From the UHGV virus genome UHGV-1834291: a stretch of DNA of 17,593 nucleotides, one strand, 5' to 3'. Shown piece by piece: positions 5,196 through 17,593 of the stretch (position 1 is its first letter; each line of letters opens with the position of its first letter). Position numbers and translations under genes: made by a program. The stretch comes from a virus. The notes beneath the pieces are model-generated. The model had not been told where the DNA came from, did no database searches, and saw only the letters and a list, made by a program, of their open reading frames with translations.

Positions 5196-6572
5196 TCATA
5201 CGTCAGCCCCTTGTGCATATCGTCTGCCACGTGCAGCAGGTGCATTTGATGTTGTGCAAATCTGTCTGGCTTCATCCTGGTCACATGCAACAAAGTGTCC
5301 GTTGCAGAACCGCTGGTAAACCGTACCAAGCGAGCCAAAACGGTTTTTCGTTACGATGATTTCAGCAAATGGCGCGGCGCTACTGTTCTCGTCATATACC
5401 GCTTCCCGATAGAGCATGATGATTGAGTCTGCGTCCTGTTCAATGCTTCCTGAATCACGCAAATCTGCGTTTGTCGGGCGTTTGTTTGGTCGCTTCTCAA
5501 CATCGCGCGAAAGCTGACTCAGGGAGATAACGGGCGTTTTCAGGTCTTTCGCCATCGCCTTCAGGCTTCCGGAGATGTGAGCAATTGCGAGGTCGTTGCG
5601 GTCTGCTTTCGGCTTCTCAATCAGGCCAAGATAATCCACCATGATGAGTGAGAGGTTTGGATTTTCCTGTTTGTGCCGTTCTGCGATTGAGCGTATTTCT
5701 TCGACCGATAACCGCGAGGCATCGACTACCCATACATCCAAATCTGCAAGCTGACTCATGCCGTTAGCAACGCGCGCCCAGCCTTCGTCATCCATCGCTG
5801 CAGGATTTCGCAGCACACTAACCGACATCCTCCCGGCGTTGGCAATGCTTCGCTCTGCAATCTGCAATGCGCTCATTTCCATTGAGAAAATCAATACCCC
5901 GCGCCGGACGTCAGAACCAGGAATAACGCGGCTTGCAACGCCTTCGGCAATCTTCAGCGCCAGTTCGGTTTTCCCCATACCAGGACGAGCAGCGATTATC
6001 ACCAGGTCTTCCGCGTTCATCCCTCCGGTGATGGCATCAAGTTCTTCGATTCCGGTCTTCAGGGTATCGGACTCTTCTCCGTTCCTCAGACGCCTGTCAA
6101 GCGTGTCAGTGTAGTCAGTAATGATTTCCCCTAACCGTACAGGTTTAACCTCGTCACGGGGCTTTCTGATGGCTGAAAGACGCTTTACAAGCTCATCCAT
6201 CGCCTGACTCGATGCGTCGATGGTTCCGCTCTGAATTGGTTCACGCATTTCATCCATGATTTCCAGCACCAGACGGCGGTGATAGTTATCCGCGACCATT
6301 CCGGCATATCCCTTCAGGTTTGCGGCACTAGGGCAGTTTTTGCTGGTCATCAGGATTGACGTGAAATGCTCCTCTCCGCACGCCTCGGCAACCATCAGCG
6401 CGTCGATTAGGTTTCTGTTTCGCGCCTGCTTGCGGATAACCTCGAAGGCTTTCCGGTAGAGCGGAATTGAAAACGCTTCCGGCTCAAGCGTTGCCAGAAC
6501 GTCACTGGCAGTTGGTGTTAATCCACCAATCAGCAGGCCACCGATAACGCTCGCTTCGATATCCTGTCTCAT
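5196..6572 (-). CDS. Replicative DNA helicase, DnaB family (P22 gene 12-like)
   Basis: 458 aa; Walker [13 protein letters not shown]; DnaB-like N-terminal domain; start ATG overlaps O-like stop (ATGA). Confidence 0.9.
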
Positions 6573-7615: not shown

Positions 7616-7851
7616 GTCAGCATTCTGGCTACTTTCTTAGCCAGTTCCGCCAACTCCTCGTCTTCAACACCCCATTCAAGAACAGCCAGAAGCATTCCCA
7701 TTTTGGGGATGAAGCTATCTTTCCATCGCGAAATTTGCGATTCATTAATCCCTAACGCGTCGGCAACCTTTCGCTGACCACGTACAGCAATTCGATTCAG
7801 GATGTTGCTTGTAATTGCATTCGCTTTCTTGCGAGTACTTGTAAGTTGCAT
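7573..7851 (-). CDS. cII: CII-like transcriptional activator
   Basis: Trimmed to ATG 7849-7851 (downstream of nutR): MQLTSTRKKANAITSNILNRIAVRGQRKVADALGINESQISRWKDSFIPKMGMLLAVLEWGVEDEE..., aligns with lambda CII including SQISRWK and MLLAVLEWGV. Confidence 0.85.
   Translation of the reverse strand: MQLTSTRKKANAITSNILNRIAVRGQRKVADALGINESQISRWKDSFIPKMGMLLAVLEWGVEDEELAELAKKVARMLTKEKAPKNGEFFEA
7577..7615 (+). terminator. Intrinsic terminator on the strand antisense to cII
   Basis: 11-bp stem gcctcgaagaa / ttcttcggggc (one G-U) with 7-nt loop 7588-7594, immediately followed by tttttctttt (7606-7615). Confidence 0.75.
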
Positions 7852-8260: not shown

Positions 8261-8977
8261 ATGGAAAATAAAAAATCACTGACGACAGAACAGCTCGAAG
8301 ACGCTAAGCGGCTTAAGGCTTTGTATGAGTCAAAAAAGAAAGAATTGGGAATAACCCAATACTCAATCGCTGATGAACTGGGTATCACCCAAGGAGCGGT
8401 AGGGCATTATCTTAATGGCAGAAACGCGCTAAACGTTGAGGTCGCATCTGGTTTTGCACGTTTGTTGCAAGTCTCAATTGCTGATTTTAGCCAGTCAATT
8501 GCTGCCAAGGTTGCAGAACAGGCAGAAAGCCTTAAGAGCGATGCCAACGTAAGGTATGCAGGGGAATACAGAGCAGGAAAGAGGTATCCGGTGTTAAGCA
8601 GTATCCAGGCTGGCTCGTGGTGTGAAGCATGCGAACCATACACCATTAAAGACATAGATGTTTGGCTTGAGTCTGACGCGCATATTCAAGGTAATGCGTT
8701 CTGGCTTAAAGTGGAAGGTGATTCAATGACGGCACCGGTTGGGTTAAGCATTCCAGAGGGAACATTCGTTCTTTTCGATACCGGAAGGGAGGCGATCAAC
8801 GGCAGCTTGGTCATAGCAAAACTTTCTGACTCTAACGAAGCAACATTCAAGAAGCTGATAATCGACGGCGGAAATAAATACCTCAAGGGACTTAATCCTG
8901 CATGGCCTCTCGTGCCAATCAATGGAAACTGCAAGATTATAGGCGTTGCAATTGAGACAAAACTAAGGCTGGTTTGA
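8261..8977 (+). CDS. cI: CI-type prophage repressor (HTH_XRE N-domain, S24 LexA-like autopeptidase C-domain)
   Basis: 238 aa; HTH ITQYSIADELGITQGAVGHYLNG; C-domain with catalytic Ser (GDSM) and Lys (FKKL) and an Ala-Gly candidate cleavage site; divergent from cro across the operator region. Confidence 0.9.
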   Translation: MENKKSLTTEQLEDAKRLKALYESKKKELGITQYSIADELGITQGAVGHYLNGRNALNVEVASGFARLLQVSIADFSQSIAAKVAEQAESLKSDANVRYAGEYRAGKRYPVLSSIQAGSWCEACEPYTIKDIDVWLESDAHIQGNAFWLKVEGDSMTAPVGLSIPEGTFVLFDTGREAINGSLVIAKLSDSNEATFKKLIIDGGNKYLKGLNPAWPLVPINGNCKIIGVAIETKLRLV

Positions 8978-8994
8978 TCACGCAAGGGGCGATT

Positions 8995-9363
8995 ATGGTT
9001 GGAACCGCTATAGCAAGCTTTTTTGGGATGTTGGCAATCTCGACAATTTACGGCTTAGCGCATGCTTTTATTGCGAAATCTCTATCAGAAAAAATAAGCC
9101 AGGCTTGGGCGCATAGATCAGCTCGTTTCATGATTCTGGTGATCATAGCAATACAAGGGATATCTGCATTTATCCTCTATGGATCAAGCTTATACCTATT
9201 GTATCAAGGCGCGACATTTACGCCTTACACCAGTGATTACGGAACTCTATACGATGGTAGTGAAGACATCACTGTGGCTTGGATCGTCTTTGGTTTATCT
9301 ATGGCCGTGTCTGTTGTAGCAGACATCATTAAGGTAATTCTCGTCTTAACCTTCGCTGACTAA
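8995..9363 (+). CDS. Small membrane protein (122 aa, three predicted TM helices) directly downstream of cI; function unknown
   Basis: ATG 8995 with RBS AAGGGG 6 nt upstream, 18 nt after cI stop; MVGTAIASFFGMLAISTIYGLAHAFIAK...; three long hydrophobic stretches; occupies the rexAB-equivalent slot between cI and OL. Confidence 0.6.
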   Translation: MVGTAIASFFGMLAISTIYGLAHAFIAKSLSEKISQAWAHRSARFMILVIIAIQGISAFILYGSSLYLLYQGATFTPYTSDYGTLYDGSEDITVAWIVFGLSMAVSVVADIIKVILVLTFAD

Positions 9364-9730: not shown

Positions 9731-10003
9731 ATGACAGTAGTCATTACATATCTGGCTGACGATAACGCCAGAAATCGCCGCAGAGCACGCAGACAGGCTC
9801 AACGTGAACAGGCAATGCAAGAGCAGCGACTGGCGCGAAAAATTGCGCTAAAGCTCTCTGGTTGCGTCAGAGCAGATAAAGCAGCATCACTCGGAAGCCT
9901 TCGCTGCAAGAAGGCAGATGAATGCAATGGAAGTATTTGCCTGCCAAACGTAGCTATTTACGCGGCAGGCTACCGGAAATCAAAACAACTGACAGCGAGG
10001 TAA
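9731..10003 (+). CDS. N: N-type antitermination protein (arginine-rich motif; P22 gp24-like C-terminus)
   Basis: 90 aa; N-terminal Arg-rich motif DNARNRRRARRQAQREQ; C-terminal AAGYRKSKQLTAR resembles the P22 gene 24 C-terminus as recalled; first gene after PL/nutL; RBS GGAGG. Confidence 0.8.
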   Translation: MTVVITYLADDNARNRRRARRQAQREQAMQEQRLARKIALKLSGCVRADKAASLGSLRCKKADECNGSICLPNVAIYAAGYRKSKQLTAR

Positions 10004-10559: not shown

Positions 10560-10582
10560 TGGTGGCCTTTATTTTCTTATTT
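10548..10582 (+). terminator. Candidate intrinsic terminator immediately after ral
   Basis: aaggctgcc / ggtggcctt 9-bp stem (two G-U) with tgat loop containing the ral stop codon, followed by tattttcttattt. Confidence 0.5.
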
Positions 10583-10595
10583 GAGAGGAATTAAT

Positions 10596-11219
10596 ATGTC
10601 ATCAATCCGCTTAACTACGAGAATGAAAGAGGAAATCGCTCGTAACGCTTTAATTAAGTCTGGGGTTTTCACTGAGCTTGAAGAAGTAACAAAGTTAAAG
10701 AACCAGCTTGCACTTGACGCCAGAGTTATTGCGTTTGGCGGTAAAAAGAAAACTGAGGAAGTGGATCAGTTATCATCCAAGTTGGTAGCTATAAGTGAAG
10801 AACTTGGAAAGATGGGATGTTCATTTTACTCATACGATTTTCGTTCTACTTCAATTTATCTGACTGTATCTGGCAGAAGGGTTGGATGGCATTCATATGG
10901 AAAAGACGGCAACGGCGAAGATATATTGCTCCCTACTCCGACCAGAGATAAATGCATGTTTGACGCAGAACACGAAATAACAAAAAGGTTTGATGAAATC
11001 TGCGCATTGCAACAAAAACTTGAAGTCAAGAAAAAGGATATCGAATCAAATGTATGGGCTGCTTTGAACTCAGTCACAACAGTTAAGCGACTCATTGAAG
11101 TTTGGCCTGAAAGCAAAGAATTGCTACCAAAAGAAGCAGATAAAGCAAGTACAGCACTTCCTGCTTTACGGGTAGAGGATTTGAATAAGATGATTGGACT
11201 TCCTTCCGAGGCCGCATAG
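10596..11219 (+). CDS. Hypothetical soluble protein, 207 aa; unknown function
   Basis: ATG 10596 with RBS GAGAGGA; MSSIRLTTRMKEEIARNALIKSGVFTELEEVTKLKNQLALD...; no TM segments or recognised catalytic motif; bracketed by terminators; occupies the slot where lambda/P22 carry sieB. Confidence 0.6.
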   Translation: MSSIRLTTRMKEEIARNALIKSGVFTELEEVTKLKNQLALDARVIAFGGKKKTEEVDQLSSKLVAISEELGKMGCSFYSYDFRSTSIYLTVSGRRVGWHSYGKDGNGEDILLPTPTRDKCMFDAEHEITKRFDEICALQQKLEVKKKDIESNVWAALNSVTTVKRLIEVWPESKELLPKEADKASTALPALRVEDLNKMIGLPSEAA

Positions 11220-14397: not shown

Positions 14398-14693
14398 GTG
14401 TATATCTTATTGATAAACGTCGACGTGGGCAACAAATACCACCTGTAGGAATTCCGAATCACACATGGTTTTGCGTACTTGATATCGATGGTATGGATGC
14501 GTTGGTTGACACTCGTCATTACTGCGATACCGCAACAGCTACTCCGGCGAAAGCAAAGAAAATGGCTGCTCTGATAGAAAACTGGACTCCACCTGATGGT
14601 TGGTGCAATGGGAATGATCGAGATTGGCATGAAAAAATGAAGGGCTATATCTGCGATTTCTTACGTAAATGCAACGGATTCAGGGTGATGTGA
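14394..14693 (+). CDS. Hypothetical Cys/His-rich protein, 99 aa (possible metal-binding)
   Basis: GTG start 14394 with RBS AGGAGG 6 nt upstream, overlapping the previous stop (GTGA); Cys/His clusters [33 protein letters not shown]. Confidence 0.5.
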
Positions 14694-14694
14694 C

Positions 14695-15471
14695 ATGAAC
14701 AAGATTGACTATCAGGCACTGCGTGCCAAGGCAGAAAAAGCAACGTGTGGTGAGTGGTCGCTCGAATATGGAGATGGCCGATTTGATGGTGATGATGCAC
14801 TAATTCATCGTGAAGTTGCTGGATATATTCCCATTTGCAGAATTGAAGGAGCGCATCCAGAAAGCGGTTTCGATGAAGATTTCCAAATGGAACAGCAGGC
14901 CAATGCTGAATTCATCGCCGCAGCCAATCCGGCTACCGTCTTGGCGCTGCTGGATGAGCTGGAAAGAAAACAGCAATACATCAAACGCCGCGACCAGGAG
15001 AACGAGGATATTGCGCTAACAGTAGGGAAACTGCGTGTTGAGCTTGAAACAGCAAAATCAAAACTCAACGAGCAGCGTGAATATTACGAGGGAGTAATCG
15101 TGGATGTGAGTAAGCGCATAGCAGAACTGGAAGCCGAACCTGTAAGCCAGGCTTACAAGTTGAACGCGCTGGCTGGCAACTCTCCGGTAACTCCAGATGG
15201 TTGGATAAGCTGTAGTGAGCGAATGCCTGTAATTGGCGAGCTAAATTGGAGAACTAGTTTTCCTTTACTGGTTACGTGTGAGATCGGCGTTATACCTGCT
15301 TATTACGGCTTTGTGAGAGTTAATGGGAATAAGCATTATGGTTTTATGGAGAGTCTTAAATATGGAGATGGTAGCGGCAACCATCCTCAAACTAATGAAT
15401 ATGACCTGATTAGCAATGTCACACACTGGATGCCTCTACCAGAACCGCCTCAGGAGGTTAACCGTGGCTAA
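14695..15471 (+). CDS. Phage protein with coiled-coil N-region and C-terminal DUF551-like domain (Ead/Ea22-like architecture)
   Basis: 258 aa; central heptad-rich segment; C-terminal DGWISCSERMPV...THWMPLPEPP resembles the DUF551 hallmark as I recall it; ATG 14695 one nt after previous stop. Confidence 0.65.
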   Translation: MNKIDYQALRAKAEKATCGEWSLEYGDGRFDGDDALIHREVAGYIPICRIEGAHPESGFDEDFQMEQQANAEFIAAANPATVLALLDELERKQQYIKRRDQENEDIALTVGKLRVELETAKSKLNEQREYYEGVIVDVSKRIAELEAEPVSQAYKLNALAGNSPVTPDGWISCSERMPVIGELNWRTSFPLLVTCEIGVIPAYYGFVRVNGNKHYGFMESLKYGDGSGNHPQTNEYDLISNVTHWMPLPEPPQEVNRG

Positions 15472-15748
15472 TCTGCAACTTGCCGTTAAAGGTGAATACT
15501 TCGATGCCATGATTCGCGGAGAGAAAACGGAAGAGTATCGCCTGTTTAATGACTACTGGAATAAGCGCCTCGTTAACCGTAAGTATGACCGCCTGATTAT
15601 CACAAAGGGATATCCGAAGCGCGACGATTCCAGCCGCAGAATTGATGTTCCGTATGACGGCTATGAAATAAAGACAATCACACATCCCCACTTCGGCGAT
15701 AAACCGGTAAAGGTGTACGCGATAAAGGTGAATATCGGCAATGAATAA
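15464..15748 (+). CDS. ASCH-like domain protein, 94 aa
   Basis: GTG 15464 with RBS AGGAGG 6 nt upstream, overlapping previous gene end; GEKTEEYR fits the ASCH GxKxxExR signature. Confidence 0.55.
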   Translation: MANLQLAVKGEYFDAMIRGEKTEEYRLFNDYWNKRLVNRKYDRLIITKGYPKRDDSSRRIDVPYDGYEIKTITHPHFGDKPVKVYAIKVNIGNE

Positions 15749-15782
15749 CAATCCTCGCACTCGCGGGAATTTCTTTTATCTG

Positions 15783-15807
15783 AACTCGCTACGGCGAGTT
15801 TTGTTTT
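15783..15807 (+). terminator. Intrinsic terminator after the ASCH-like gene
   Basis: aactcgc / gcgagtt 7-bp stem with tacg loop, followed by ttgtttt. Confidence 0.65.
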
Positions 15808-15820
15808 ATGGAGACAAGAA

Positions 15821-16165
15821 ATGTCAGATTTGGCTATGAAGGTTTTGAAATGGCAATCGACTGGCGATGTCGGCATCAGTAGCGCAACTCTTGCCTCAAT
15901 CGCATGTGGACTGAAAAAGAATATCTATGGTCATCACTTCGGCGCTCCACATGACGCAGCCGATTTCCGGCGATGCGTTGCACTTGTTGAGCAGATTCCA
16001 GAAATCAGAGATTCATTCGACAAGGTTGCAAAGCGCGTTCCGGCATTCAAAGGAATCCTCAACGAATGGGATTCACTCGTTGCTCTGTTGAAGTCTGAAA
16101 TGAAGATACACGGAAACAAAGCACCAGAGACTTACAGAAGAATTAGCGAGCTACGCAAGGACTAA
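15821..16165 (+). CDS. Hypothetical protein, 114 aa
   Basis: ATG 15821 with RBS GGAGA; MSDLAMKVLKWQSTGDVGISSATLASIACGLKKNIYGHHFGAPHDAADFRRC...; bracketed by terminator-like hairpins. Confidence 0.55.
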   Translation: MSDLAMKVLKWQSTGDVGISSATLASIACGLKKNIYGHHFGAPHDAADFRRCVALVEQIPEIRDSFDKVAKRVPAFKGILNEWDSLVALLKSEMKIHGNKAPETYRRISELRKD

Positions 16166-16166
16166 C

Positions 16167-16228
16167 GCCTCACACTCGATGAGGCCTGTACATATCTGAT
16201 AGATCCGCTATATGGCGGTTTCTTTTTG
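16167..16228 (+). terminator. Terminator-like region after the 114-aa gene (two hairpins, second followed by a U-tract)
   Basis: gcctca/tgaggc 6-bp stem (16167-16185) without U-tract; then ccgc/gcgg short stem (16205-16218) followed by tttcttttt. Confidence 0.4.
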
Positions 16229-16242
16229 CCTGGAGAATTAAG

Positions 16243-16434
16243 ATGACCGATACCAGCCTGATTCCTGAGAAAGAAGTGATGAACAAGCTCGGTGTTTCAT
16301 CACGTCAGACAATCTGGAACTATACCAAACGGCACGGATTTCCGAAGCCAGTCAGAACCCACCCCAAATCATACCTTCGTGAAGCTGTTGAGGGGTGGAT
16401 TCTTAACGGTGGCGTTAATCAGAAATGCTCCTGA
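16243..16434 (+). CDS. xis: Excisionase-like small DNA-binding protein (Xis)
   Basis: 63 aa, basic, adjacent to integrase; RBS GGAGA 6 nt upstream; 3' end overlaps the convergent int 3' end by 20 bp. Confidence 0.65.
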   Translation: MTDTSLIPEKEVMNKLGVSSRQTIWNYTKRHGFPKPVRTHPKSYLREAVEGWILNGGVNQKCS

Positions 16435-17593
16435 TGTGCCAGAACAATTTATCAGCGTGAAGCTCATACGCTTTGCGCTGAGCCTCTATCCAGTCGTGTT
16501 TATTGTATACGGACATTATCCCGCCAAGTTCATGACCGAGCATTCGCTCAGTAACATGAGGCTCGACATTCATCTCGGACAGACGTGTAACAAGCGTTCT
16601 TCTGAAATCATGTGTTCGCCAGTAACCTAGATCCATCCCTCCCCTTATTCTATTTACGAATCGGTTGGCTGCAGCGATGCTGATCGGTTTGTTTATGTCT
16701 TCTCCAGGGAAAAGAACATCATTGTACGTTGTCATGGCCTTTTCGAGAAAAGGCTTAATTTGTTCGAAGATTGGACGACGGATAACATTACCCATCTTGC
16801 TATGCTCTTTCGGTACGGTCCATACGTTGTCCAGCAGGTCAAATTCTGTCTTTGTTGCCAGCCTAAGCTCTGAGAGCCTCGCCCCCCACAGCATAAGCAT
16901 CTGATGAAGGAGCTTATTTGACGTAGACGCACGGCTTCTTTCAATAGCAAGCCAAATCTTAGCCAGTTCGTGATACGACAGTACCCGATCCCCTACCTCA
17001 GCGCGGGAGCCGAAGTCCCTTGGCTGGATGCTCATAATTGCGCAACTATCTATCAACTGACGCCGCATGCACCAACTAATTGCTGATCTTAGTTGACTTA
17101 GCACCTGCCTTGCTCGGCGTGGATTATCTTTTTCTTCTTCGGTAAGCAGGTCAACCCATTGCTTAACCGTGATAGAAGATGCCGGACGATTAGGGAAGGC
17201 GTCATGCATGCGCTTCATAACCGTTGATCGGTAAAGTGCCTGGGTCTTTTCTCTGAGAGTTGTAGAGACGTAGTTGTCGAACCAGTAGTCGAGACACTGG
17301 GCGACCGTCATGGAGTTCTCCACCTTCTCTTCAAAATAAGTGCGTGGATCCGTTCCTGAGAAATAGAGCTTTCGCAAGTCAGCAGTGATCTGTCTGGCAT
17401 CCTTCAAAGACAGGGATGGGTATCGACCAAGCCCAAGTCGATTAGGCTTGCCATGCCAGCGATAGCGGTACTGGAACTGGATGACCCCCTTCGGTGAAAT
17501 TCGTACGCTGAGGCCATCAGCATCAGCCACTTCTTGTGGGCCCGAATATGGTTTACCATAAATAGTACGCAGTTTTGTGTCGCTTATAGCCAT
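16415..17593 (-). CDS. int: Tyrosine site-specific integrase (P4-type architecture)
   Basis: 392 aa; catalytic-domain motifs GARLSELRLATKTEFD (Arg box), THDFRRT (H-x-x-R) and LGHELGGIMSVYNKHDW (catalytic Tyr); start codon is the last three bases of the window. Confidence 0.95.
   Translation of the reverse strand: MAISDTKLRTIYGKPYSGPQEVADADGLSVRISPKGVIQFQYRYRWHGKPNRLGLGRYPSLSLKDARQITADLRKLYFSGTDPRTYFEEKVENSMTVAQCLDYWFDNYVSTTLREKTQALYRSTVMKRMHDAFPNRPASSITVKQWVDLLTEEEKDNPRRARQVLSQLRSAISWCMRRQLIDSCAIMSIQPRDFGSRAEVGDRVLSYHELAKIWLAIERSRASTSNKLLHQMLMLWGARLSELRLATKTEFDLLDNVWTVPKEHSKMGNVIRRPIFEQIKPFLEKAMTTYNDVLFPGEDINKPISIAAANRFVNRIRGGMDLGYWRTHDFRRTLVTRLSEMNVEPHVTERMLGHELGGIMSVYNKHDWIEAQRKAYELHADKLFWHIRSISD

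Follow-up and report, generated by a model that had tools for sequence, protein, structure and literature searches.

The genes of the lambdoid exo-xis region are reported to be expressed earliest in lytic development and to influence the lysis-lysogeny decision (PMC8614690, PMC3824215). Morons in the strict sense carry their own promoter and their own terminator, deviate in GC content and are expressed from the repressed prophage (Juhala et al. 2000, summarised in PMC3594210). The gene studied here, which we call ORF114 after its first annotation in the phage 434 record (GenBank M60848), is not covered in the exo-xis papers just cited, and a literature search on tL4/HK022, phrog_1229 and 434 ORF114 found no paper. 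The open reading frame and its terminators have been present in GenBank since about 1990, and the record of the HK022 counterpart, gp32 (AUM59808), bears the label 'N15 early protein homolog'.

The window, i.e., the whole stretch of DNA that was analysed, comprises 17,593 nucleotides of the UHGV virus genome UHGV-1834291. An earlier note had described in it a 114-aa ORF with a good ribosome binding site (RBS) and no recognisable motif, bracketed by terminators just upstream of xis, and had taken it for independently acquired, moron-like cargo. The ORF is indeed present on the + strand, and a GGAGA sequence lies 6 nt 5′ of its ATG (Table 1). The homology search that the note had proposed gave a full-length match to PHROG 1229 (E = 7.1e-52; residues 1-114 of the window protein against profile positions 1-113 of 116), and this places the product in a conserved, non-structural family. 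The window protein is 97-100% identical to 434 ORF114, HK022 gp32 and the mEp043 protein, and genes with the same degree of identity were found in mEp213, Gally (99%) and many Stx phages; 940 of 5,426 complete E. coli genomes (about 17%) carry the gene. Since dN/dS was 0.03-0.19 across six orthologs, ORF114 is a real gene and the reading of 15821-16165 as a spurious ORF was ruled out; by this measure the protein is under strong purifying selection. The window gene i) belongs to a long-annotated, ordinary family and is not a new discovery, and ii) is an accessory gene, conserved and non-structural, of a mosaic P22-like/lambdoid prophage.

Table 1. Features of the window in and around the early-left region
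Feature	Position	Strand	Identification
N-like antitermination protein	9731-10003	+	phrog_271 'anti-termination protein N-like', E = 5e-34
ASCH-like small protein	15464-15748	+	phrog_625, E = 2e-49; weak ASCH match; homolog of HK022 gp34
Hairpin and T-tract, CCTCGCACTCGCGGGA ATTTCTTTTAT	15752-15779	+	Equivalent of tL4 / t-L4; scan, fold, annotation of X51962 and M60848, alignments
Second intrinsic terminator (predicted)	15782-15809	+	8-bp stem GAACTCGC/GCGAGTTT at 15782-15801, then TGTTTTAT
Shine-Dalgarno sequence GGAGA of ORF114	15810-15814	+	
ORF114-family gene, 114 aa	15821-16165	+	Phage 434 ORF114, HK022 gp32, Gally GALLYPH_20, PHROG 1229
Hairpin GCCTCA-N7-TGAGGC	16167-16185	+	Directly 3′ of the stop codon; U-tract absent; fold z = -2.7
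Terminator-like hairpin, CCGCTATATGGCGG + TTTCTTTTTG	16205-16228	+	Just 5′ of xis; positional counterpart of 434 t′-I
AlpA-type excisionase/regulator (xis)	16243-16434	+	Weak Phage_AlpA/HTH_17 matches; phrog_66
Tyrosine integrase	16415-17593	-	Arm-DNA-bind_3 and Phage_integrase domains

ORF114 is the last early-left (PL) gene and lies downstream of the gene for the N-like antiterminator. The order of the operon (cI, N-like, Ral, Erf, SSB-like, Abc2, Ea22/DUF551, ASCH-like, ORF114, xis) is that of HK544, whose record annotates PL and N. The same last position before xis/int was observed in 434, HK022, Gally, WGPS8, SPN9CC and ENT47670, and a near-last one in g341c. Immediately upstream, the place of the ASCH-like gene is held by at least three alternative genes among related phages, with Gally and 434 differing there. 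The window xis has a counterpart in WGPS8 and HK544 that their records call an AlpA family protein; the integrase gene is convergent with xis, overlaps it by 20 nt, and has its start codon at the window end.

Four hairpins surround ORF114. The upstream terminator that the earlier note had placed at 15783-15807 was recovered as an 8-bp stem with a T-tract at 15782-15809, which folds at -11.9 kcal/mol (z = -4.15; 0 of 200 shuffles folded as well) and is kept in lambda, 434, HK022, Gally and WGPS8. The two hairpins reported 3′ of the gene, the second with a U-tract, were also found, at 16167-16185 and 16205-16228. Directly 5′ of the 15782-15809 terminator lies a weaker hairpin, overlooked in the note, at 15752-15779; its counterpart is annotated 'tL4' in HK022 (X51962) and 't-L4' in phage 434 (M60848). 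The 16167-16185 hairpin accompanies ORF114 in all phages compared, and was hence taken as the 3′ end of the conserved block. The most distal element has a 5-bp GC stem (16205-16218) followed by TTTCTTTTTG; alone it is not unusually stable (z = -1.5), yet it is conserved and is common to HK544 and Stx2a_WGPS8, both with the same AlpA-type xis/int module. A GC-rich stem followed by a U-tract, as in predicted terminators, is present in three of the hairpins and absent from that at 16167-16185. Terminator-like sites numbered 6 in 14600-17593, against 2.6 ± 2.1 expected. In phages that were sequenced independently all four hairpins keep their position, and the records label two of them as terminators; we consider this positional conservation more persuasive than the site count as support for the predicted terminators. 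The bracketing elements thus named in the records appear to be the t-L4 and t′-I of the PL operon, not private signals of ORF114. An Rfam search returned only rsmX (E = 0.32), which was ruled out because its score was far below the gathering score.

Comparison of lambda, 434, HK022, Gally and HK544 revealed how the gene comes and goes. In the alignment, lambda has the same layout of tL4, hairpin, ORF55 and xis, and ORF114 is absent. The extra DNA of 434 relative to lambda begins just past one terminator T-tract and stops just past the next. In the window, the T-tract of 15782-15809 runs straight into the RBS, a junction that recurs as the motif 'T-tract-TAT(T)GGAGA'. At this junction phages differ in ORF55, which HK022, 434 and Gally have and the window lacks, between two 'GGCGG-T-tract-TATGGAGA' repeats that are nearly identical. 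Upstream of the ORF114 block stands one of at least three different genes, depending on the phage, and downstream of it one of two different xis/int modules, and the homology between the lambda-xis and AlpA-xis groups of phages stops about 10-20 nt past the 16167-16185 hairpin. HK544 keeps only the last ~17 codons of ORF114, fused to another gene, and chimeric fragments are numerous. By these alignments, ORF114 is a presence/absence cassette composed of RBS, ORF, hairpin and terminator, with its ends at terminator T-tracts. The T-tracts may act as recombination joints in this region, and the cassette would have been inserted at such a joint.

Promoter prediction, another check that the note had named, was run on 14600-17593: no sigma-70-like site was found on the + strand against 4.1 expected, weak or non-sigma-70 promoters lying outside the test. 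The + strand of the equivalent region of Gally likewise had no sigma-70-like site, and a search for a CRP-like site near ORF114 found none. The cassette opens with its RBS about 1 nt past the terminator T-tract (T-tract into RBS, 15802-15814); since the RBS abuts the T-tract, a promoter would find no space there, and the cassette is, as far as its nucleotide sequence can be read, promoterless. The GC content across ORF114 (0.47) falls within that of the flanks (0.44-0.50). The features of a strict moron are hence found in part. The gene is extra DNA relative to a close relative, lambda, and bounded by T-tracts where present, and the insert in 434, HK022 and Gally carries a hairpin plus t′-I as a terminator of its own; in the window, the downstream terminator (16205-16228) co-segregates with the AlpA-xis module. 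Since the cassette offers no space for a promoter, shows no GC anomaly and lies downstream of an N-type antiterminator, we regard it as 'more DNA' and not as a strict moron. The idea of independently acquired, moron-like cargo held as far as separate gain and loss of the cassette is concerned (lambda versus 434), but failed for promoter and GC content.

Published transcript data exist for the 99% identical gene of Gally (GEO GSE154648; the stretch concerned is LF82 1,000,402-1,001,400). In a lysogen grown overnight in LB its RNA-seq value was 13.9 against a prophage median of 15.6, i.e., background, and the authors of that study list no morons in Gally. In the B6 samples, the ORF114 homolog was at log2 6.7-7.0 and the upstream PL genes were at 3.6-4.3 (3.6-4.5 for N, recT, EaA, EaD and EaE), an excess of about 8-10-fold; over xis the excess was put at about 8-10-fold and, from the fall in RNA between the two genes, at about 16-fold. 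Together with its two upstream neighbours the homolog covered log2 6.3-7.6. Simple read-through from PL does not explain the B6 pattern. The HK022 lysogen paper contains no transcriptome of the ORF114 region.

A rival reading is a true moron: a lysogenic-conversion or defence gene, transcribed from the repressed prophage independently of PL, insulated by its terminators, and of benefit to the lysogen, e.g., by superinfection exclusion. Cassette-like presence and absence, the bracketing by terminators, and a B6 level ~8-10-fold above the upstream PL genes and ~16-fold above xis agree with it. So do two distant relatives: the member in Vibrio phage K67 is encoded within the tail module but on the other strand, and has an upstream palindrome/-10 and a terminator of its own, and that of Arthrobacter phage KHumphrey lies downstream of the repressor and integrase genes. 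We nevertheless judge this reading unlikely. In addition to the missing promoter space, the unremarkable GC content and the background expression in LB, the B6 signal also spans two unrelated upstream genes, and it could stem from a promoter peculiar to Gally or from RNA fragments stabilised by hairpins. The PADLOC-DB defence models gave 0 families at E ≤ 0.1 with the window protein. Furthermore, the family occurs in virulent phages, e.g., Sashavirus Solent, in which a gene of benefit to lysogens makes little sense.

The family comprises 2,814 clusters at 50% identity. It is found in phages that infect Proteobacteria or Actinobacteria as well as on Pseudomonas megaplasmids, and a giant virus contributes a fold-level match. 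The absence of a recognisable motif reported earlier was confirmed: Pfam, NCBIfam and PADLOC searches of the window protein and a Pfam search of 72 relatives gave no match, and no relative was found in the PDB. The AF2 model (pLDDT 93.5) is all-alpha, with seven helices. An alignment of 72 sequences with 30-45% identity revealed seven invariant residues (S20, P43, D45, D48, R51, C52 and W83), and the motif PxD(P)xD[FL]xRC is invariant across the family; the window protein has all seven (GISS...APHDAADFRRC...EWD). In the model, helix N-termini hold many of the invariant residues (S20/S21, D45, P60/E61, W83/D84 and P102), which could thus cap the helices instead of forming a binding site. The pI varies from 4.6 to 10.1 within the family, and because it is not conserved a generic nucleic-acid binder or a DNA mimic is disfavoured. 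Forms of ~270 and ~190 aa carry heterogeneous extensions without a Pfam match, a few of them with a Zn-ribbon. A lipoprotein annotation (AP012530) was ruled out: the column of the presumed lipobox cysteine, C29, varies (L25/C9/V7), and residues 1-28 are confidently modelled as two helices of the globular domain.

The invariant residues could alternatively mark an active or ligand site (Asp, Asp, Arg, Cys) of a small enzyme or a nucleotide-binding/sensing module, possibly tied to nucleotidyltransferase or tRNA biology. D45, D48, R51 and C52 are among the residues invariant over the 72 sequences, one member (P0168) is a fusion with an enzyme that combines CCA-adding/poly(A) polymerase and HD parts, and a YfbR-like HD nucleotidase adjoins the gene at some loci. 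However, the CCA-enzyme fusion was dismissed as evidence, since its sole source is one 1.9-kb contig of one sample and internal Met codons occur where the two parts meet. The JGI name 'UTP:GlnB uridylyltransferase' for P0267 was dismissed as well: it has no HMM support, and the gene lies in an ordinary phage context. Catalysis is unlikely for an all-helical protein of 114 aa that has only one Cys and lacks a metal-binding pattern, and the position of many invariant residues at helix N-caps speaks for structure; an enzyme is accordingly improbable in our estimate.

A role as accessory factor or regulator of the adjacent xis/int, in excision directionality or xis/int expression, is very improbable: the gene stands last or near-last before xis/int in lambda-like and P22-like phages at 58-100% identity, and its N-terminal G-[IV]-S-S-x-T-[LM] stretch resembles an HTH motif, but it is paired with two unrelated xis/int modules, the family occurs in virulent phages, Mu-like early regions and plasmids without xis, the HTH families of Pfam gave no match with the window protein or its 72 relatives, and the putative recognition helix (helix 2, SSATLASIA) lacks the basic residues expected of an HTH protein in a family whose pI is not conserved.

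The reading that we prefer, and hold with moderate confidence, is that a PHROG 1229 accessory gene, carried as a promoterless cassette expressed from PL under N, encodes an early host-directed binder. In the repressed prophage, the PL-operon terminators (tL4-type and t′I-type) would keep stray transcription from xis. After infection or induction, N-modified RNA polymerase would, by analogy, read through the terminators around ORF114, and operon position and lambda biology suggest delayed-early synthesis of the protein at that stage, together with Ral, Erf and Abc2. The product is predicted to be a small soluble all-alpha domain, and its family-wide invariant residues suggest, in the model, one conserved interaction surface. 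Most likely it would bind a conserved host component stoichiometrically and thereby aid the establishment of the incoming or induced phage, e.g., through counter-defence, anti-restriction or the takeover of the host. Our best guess is hence a protein that binds a host target early; the anti-defence or establishment role is read from neighbourhood and timing. The protein is dispensable for laboratory growth.

The distant members bear on this neighbourhood. They are present in virulent phages and in early accessory regions beside RdgC, Lar, GemA/Gp11 and an HD nucleotidase; on phage contigs, and also on Pseudomonas megaplasmids, they have orphan DNA methyltransferases as neighbours. Among 98 IMG/VR loci no neighbour family recurred in more than 8, from which we deduce that the gene acts alone. 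A bolder proposal, that these are stand-alone phage and plasmid proteins whose PxDPxDFxRC surface neutralises a broadly conserved host defence or nuclease, is tentative and, in our estimate, rather improbable. If an anti-defence or establishment role were true, it would add a new factor of this kind to the classic lambdoid exo-xis region, and, should it apply to the family as an anti-defence or host-takeover factor, a widespread new component of phage-host conflict that includes the exo-xis region of Stx phages. As a sequence feature the locus changes nothing. It is a clean worked example of lambdoid early-left operons gaining and losing single-gene cassettes at terminator/RBS joints, and it flags a large, strongly conserved family without a Pfam model or structure.

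The closest described counterparts, 434 ORF114, HK022 gp32 and Gally GALLYPH_20, are 97-99% identical in amino acids and have the same position as the window gene between tL4-type terminators and a pre-xis terminator, and the same downstream hairpin. Over 15752-15809 the hairpin and T-tract elements match the annotated tL4 region of 434 and HK022 base for base, whereas the pre-xis terminator of the window is a positional counterpart of t′-I that differs in sequence and belongs to the AlpA-xis module. The window also differs from these three phages in having no ORF55 between the terminators and ORF114, and in its AlpA-type xis with a convergent integrase where they have a lambda-type xis-int. 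As in the N-antiterminated PL operon of lambda, an N-like gene is present, and by analogy the terminators of the window would be read through. The lambdoid exo-xis genes (lambda orf55, ea8.5, ea22, orf60a, orf61, orf63 and orf73) occupy the same distal PL region; like ORF114, those of lambda are small, non-essential, variably present, and located between the recombination genes and xis, but they have no sequence or fold relationship to it. Lambda, phi24B and 933W have no ORF114, the family of which reaches far beyond lambdoid phages. With the morons of Juhala and Hendrix (e.g., HK97 gp15) it shares the character of extra DNA, a single small gene, a terminator after it, and terminator/RBS junctions, and the family member of Vibrio phage K67 even lies in the same tail-chaperone/tape-measure slot as HK97 gp15. 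Unlike them, ORF114 has no promoter of its own and no GC deviation, its Gally copy is at background in LB, and the gene belongs to an early operon under antitermination, whereas theirs is the late region.

The gene and its flanking terminators are both real, and the earlier note, which had recognised a 114-aa ORF with a good RBS, an intrinsic terminator upstream and two hairpins downstream, the second with a U-tract, described them correctly. The upstream hairpin (hairpin 2) folds at -11.9 kcal/mol with z = -4.15, and 0 of 200 shuffles were as good. A weaker hairpin with a T-tract, overlooked in that description and slightly extending it, lies immediately 5′ of hairpin 2; alignment places the annotated tL4 terminator at this first hairpin of the tandem pair, hairpin 2 being the second.

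Features of the ORF114 region and of the early genes in the window
Feature	Position	Strand	Basis
ORF114, ATG start, 114 codons	15821-16165	+	ORF call on the window
ORF114 RBS, GGAGA	15810-15814	+	sequence
Hairpin 2, intrinsic terminator, 8-bp stem, tail TGTTTTAT, directly upstream of ORF114	15782-15801 (stem)	+	terminator scan
Weaker hairpin plus T-tract, equivalent of tL4	~15752-15779	+	scan, fold, alignment
Post-stop hairpin without U-tract	16167-16185	+	sequence, fold
Short GC stem plus TTTCTTTTTG, just 5′ of the xis RBS	16205-16228	+	terminator scan, fold
In order: cI repressor, rex-slot gene, N-like antiterminator, Ral, two genes of unknown function	9731-10003 (N-like)	+	
Continuing: Erf, SSB-like, Abc2, phrog_1239 protein, Ea22/DUF551, ASCH-like, ORF114, AlpA-type xis		+	
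Integrase, convergent with xis; window stops at the int start codon		-	
xis-int overlap, 20 nt, within 16243-17593	16415-16434	+/-	
Gene directly after cI, rex slot (phrog_6534)	8974-9363		
212-aa ORF between Ral and a 340-aa gene (phrog_1965, unknown function)	10581-11219		

The feature is an ordinary and long-annotated one, namely phage 434 ORF114 between t-L4 and t′-I. The 434 record (GenBank M60848) carries the order t-L4 terminator, ORF55, ORF114, t′-I terminator, xis and int; tL4 is also annotated in HK022 (X51962), and the complete HK022 record lists the homolog as gp32, "N15 early protein homolog". Proteins 97-100% identical to ORF114 are encoded by phages 434, HK022, mEp043, mEp213, mEp234, Gally, Huey and many Stx1/Stx2 phages, and the gene is present in 940 of 5,426 complete E. 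coli genomes, nearly all copies being chromosomal. Over its whole length the protein fits PHROG 1229, a family of unknown function (E = 7e-52), and a literature search found no paper on this gene.

The window covers the immunity and early region of a mosaic P22-like/lambdoid prophage, with best overall matches to HF4s, HK544, CUS-3, Sf101 and some Stx phages. From the gene order on the + strand, ORF114 is the final gene of the early-left (PL) operon, the "exo-xis" region of the literature. Whereas xis and int are co-directional in lambda, 434 and HK022, here they are convergent; since int cannot be expressed from PL, the terminator before xis shields xis alone from upstream transcription. In lambda, the PL-operon terminators are overridden by N antitermination. 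Because of this established biology and the N-like gene in the window, the hairpins around ORF114 would most simply be PL-operon terminators, a simpler reading than that of a moron: in the lysogen they would insulate xis, and after induction N antitermination would override them.

Morons are defined as additions to a genome with deviant GC content, their own promoter and terminator, and expression from the repressed prophage (PMC3594210). The earlier note's term "moron-like" stands as far as addition and terminator are concerned. However, the GC content of ORF114 (0.47) lies within that of its flanks (0.44-0.50), and the gene appears to lack its own promoter: the + strand between 14600 and 17593 contains no sigma-70-like site against 4.1 expected. 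The same search came up empty on the + strand of the Gally counterpart. The cassette opens with the RBS, about 1 nt past the terminator tail. Expression was gauged by proxy from published RNA-seq of E. coli LF82, where a 99% identical copy (GALLYPH_20 = LF82_096) sits in prophage Gally. In overnight LB cultures this homolog gave 13.9 normalised reads, the median over the prophage being 15.6. A moron in the strict sense is thus not supported, because ORF114 has neither a recognisable promoter nor a GC anomaly, belongs to an N-antiterminated operon and, in its Gally copy, does not rise above background in LB. Of the other genes in the window, the one in the rex slot would be likelier to be expressed in the lysogen, and the 212-aa ORF is probably the other, "207-aa" moron-like gene of the earlier note.

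The authors of the RNA-seq study list no morons for Gally, a conclusion drawn from LB only (PMC9928086). In the bacteria-only samples B6 (culture condition defined in the PMC8149705 supplement), the Gally homolog and its two upstream neighbours reached log2(fpkm+5) values of 6.3-7.6, with N, recT, EaA, EaD and EaE at 3.6-4.5 and xis at 2.7-3.4. This pattern is not that of simple PL read-through, and shows effective termination before xis in Gally. In B6 and MB1, GALLYPH_20-22, GALLYPH_30-31 and int were 4-16-fold over their neighbours, and N was near background while these small early-left blocks and int were raised (PMC9928086 S1 Table). Such patchiness is explained neither by PL read-through nor by an absence of morons in Gally. 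The B6 signal could come from a promoter peculiar to Gally and lying upstream of GALLYPH_22 (the window has no such gene), or alternatively from preferential survival of hairpin-protected RNA segments. On this one published data set, ORF114 may be expressed independently of PL under some conditions. Between GALLYPH_22 and the tL4 hairpin, Gally also contains an unannotated 29-codon Cys-rich ORF (MMWPICVNCGRMCLSGWCRKCDKCTKKRQ; 2650-2739 of locus L008), without counterpart in the window, that could encode a small zinc-ribbon peptide.

Among six orthologs dN/dS was 0.03-0.19, so purifying selection on the encoded protein is strong. When 1.84 billion representative proteins were searched with a profile, 2,814 family clusters passed E <= 1e-3 and 623 passed E <= 1e-10; most members stand alone and measure 105-135 aa. 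They occur in lambdoid, P22-like and N15-like phages, in about 150 Vibrio phage records, in the virulent Sashavirus and in Aeromonas, Mannheimia, Arthrobacter and Clavibacter phages, with a fold-level match in a giant virus; distant members (26-31% identity) are a conserved feature of 109 Pseudomonas megaplasmids (290-520 kb). In 72 family sequences with 30-45% identity to the query, S20, P43, D45, D48, R51, C52 and W83 were invariant and W11, G18, S21, L55 and P60 nearly so, giving the signature G-x-S-S ... P-x-D-(P)-x-D-[FL]-x-R-C ... W-D. Several of the invariant positions coincide with the N-termini of predicted helices, where the residues may be structural. The spread of pI across the family (4.6-10.1) speaks against the protein being a generic nucleic-acid binder or mimicking DNA. 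An Rfam search returned nothing. The "lipoprotein" label of one record is not credible, the JGI name "uridylyltransferase" lacks HMM support, a fusion to a CCA-adding enzyme comes from a single 1.9-kb contig of one sample and has Met codons where the two parts meet, and longer members differ in their N- and C-terminal extensions. What remains of interest is a very large, strongly conserved family of phage and plasmid proteins with no assigned name, structure or function.

At 98 IMG/VR loci the family gene generally shared the orientation of the genes around it, and none of the adjoining families occurred at more than 8 of these loci, which indicates that the gene works alone. Recurring neighbours are early or accessory genes (Mu Gp11, GemA, RdgC, a YfbR-like HD nucleotidase, an RNase T-Lar fusion and Q). 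Orphan DNA methyltransferases adjoin the gene on metagenomic phage contigs and on Pseudomonas megaplasmids, a non-phage niche of the family where an integrase/HTH pair, an ASCH protein and a 3′-5′ exonuclease are further neighbours (members at 5995-6351 on P. aeruginosa pBM413, L116, and 6001-6444 on a P. putida plasmid, L117); in the window, Ral and Abc2 share the ORF114 operon. This theme is circumstantially compatible with a role in establishment or counter-defence, and the best-supported reading of the product is a delayed-early, host-directed binding protein aiding establishment. Two contexts point the other way. In an Arthrobacter phage the copy lies downstream of repressor and integrase. 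In Vibrio phage K67 (L006, OZ196463.1, 3886-4366) it is a lone, opposite-strand gene flanked by those for the tape measure and the tail chaperone, in the slot of the HK97 gp15 moron, and is followed by a bidirectional terminator. In the 92-nt gap before the gene, a TGTGA-N6-TCACA palindrome matches the CRP consensus perfectly, its centre lying about 41.5 nt upstream of the TSS inferred from a TATAGT -10. With three perfect copies in 8.3 kb (0.01 expected), all intergenic (the others at 5857-5872 and 7803-7818), the palindrome is a real regulatory motif, of either host CRP or a phage regulator.

Four-way and three-way alignments of related phages delimit a conserved block: the tL4 hairpin and hairpin 2 come first, then, in some phages, ORF55 together with a terminator of its own, and finally the RBS, ORF114 and the post-stop hairpin. 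At least three unrelated genes lie 5′ of tL4 (ASCH-like in the window and HK022, a different one in Gally, another in 434). About 10-20 nt 3′ of the post-stop hairpin, homology splits into a group with t′-I and a lambda-type xis, and one with the 16205-16228 element and an AlpA-type xis (the window, HK544 and Stx2a_WGPS8). ORF55 (lambda lambdap35, HK022 gp33) is a separate presence/absence cassette, bracketed in other phages by two near-identical GGCGG-T-tract-TAT(T)GGAGA sequences. Comparison of window 15782-15820 with HK022 (L002, 3327-3600), 434 (L009, 295-565) and lambda (L010) shows that the window lacks ORF55, the joint lying inside this repeat, an indication that recombination in the distal PL region uses terminator-plus-RBS sequences as joints. 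HK544 (L109) has the same xis and int as the window, but its ORF114 is reduced to the last ~17 codons plus both downstream hairpins (about 14860-15070), fused to another gene (gp28). Such a remnant explains many truncated or chimeric database homologs, fused to Erf, Kil, Ea22 or (dATP/dGTP) pyrophosphohydrolase; in many prophages a partial ORF114 is in frame with unrelated upstream early genes, as in database proteins P0015, P0017, P0028, P0036, P0049, P0051, P0052 and P0063. These fusions are deletion scars, the distal PL region often being eroded from its upstream side with the ORF114 3′ end and hairpins retained. Given cassette ends at terminator/RBS sequences and the presence/absence pattern, ORF114 and ORF55 are single-gene cassettes, independently gained and lost, and comparative genomics thus supports the proposal of an independently acquired cargo gene. 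Lambda has tL4, hairpin 2, ORF55 and xis without ORF114; relative to lambda, the extra DNA of 434 starts right after the ORF55-terminator T-tract (ATTGGAGACAAGAAATG...) and stops right after that of t′-I.
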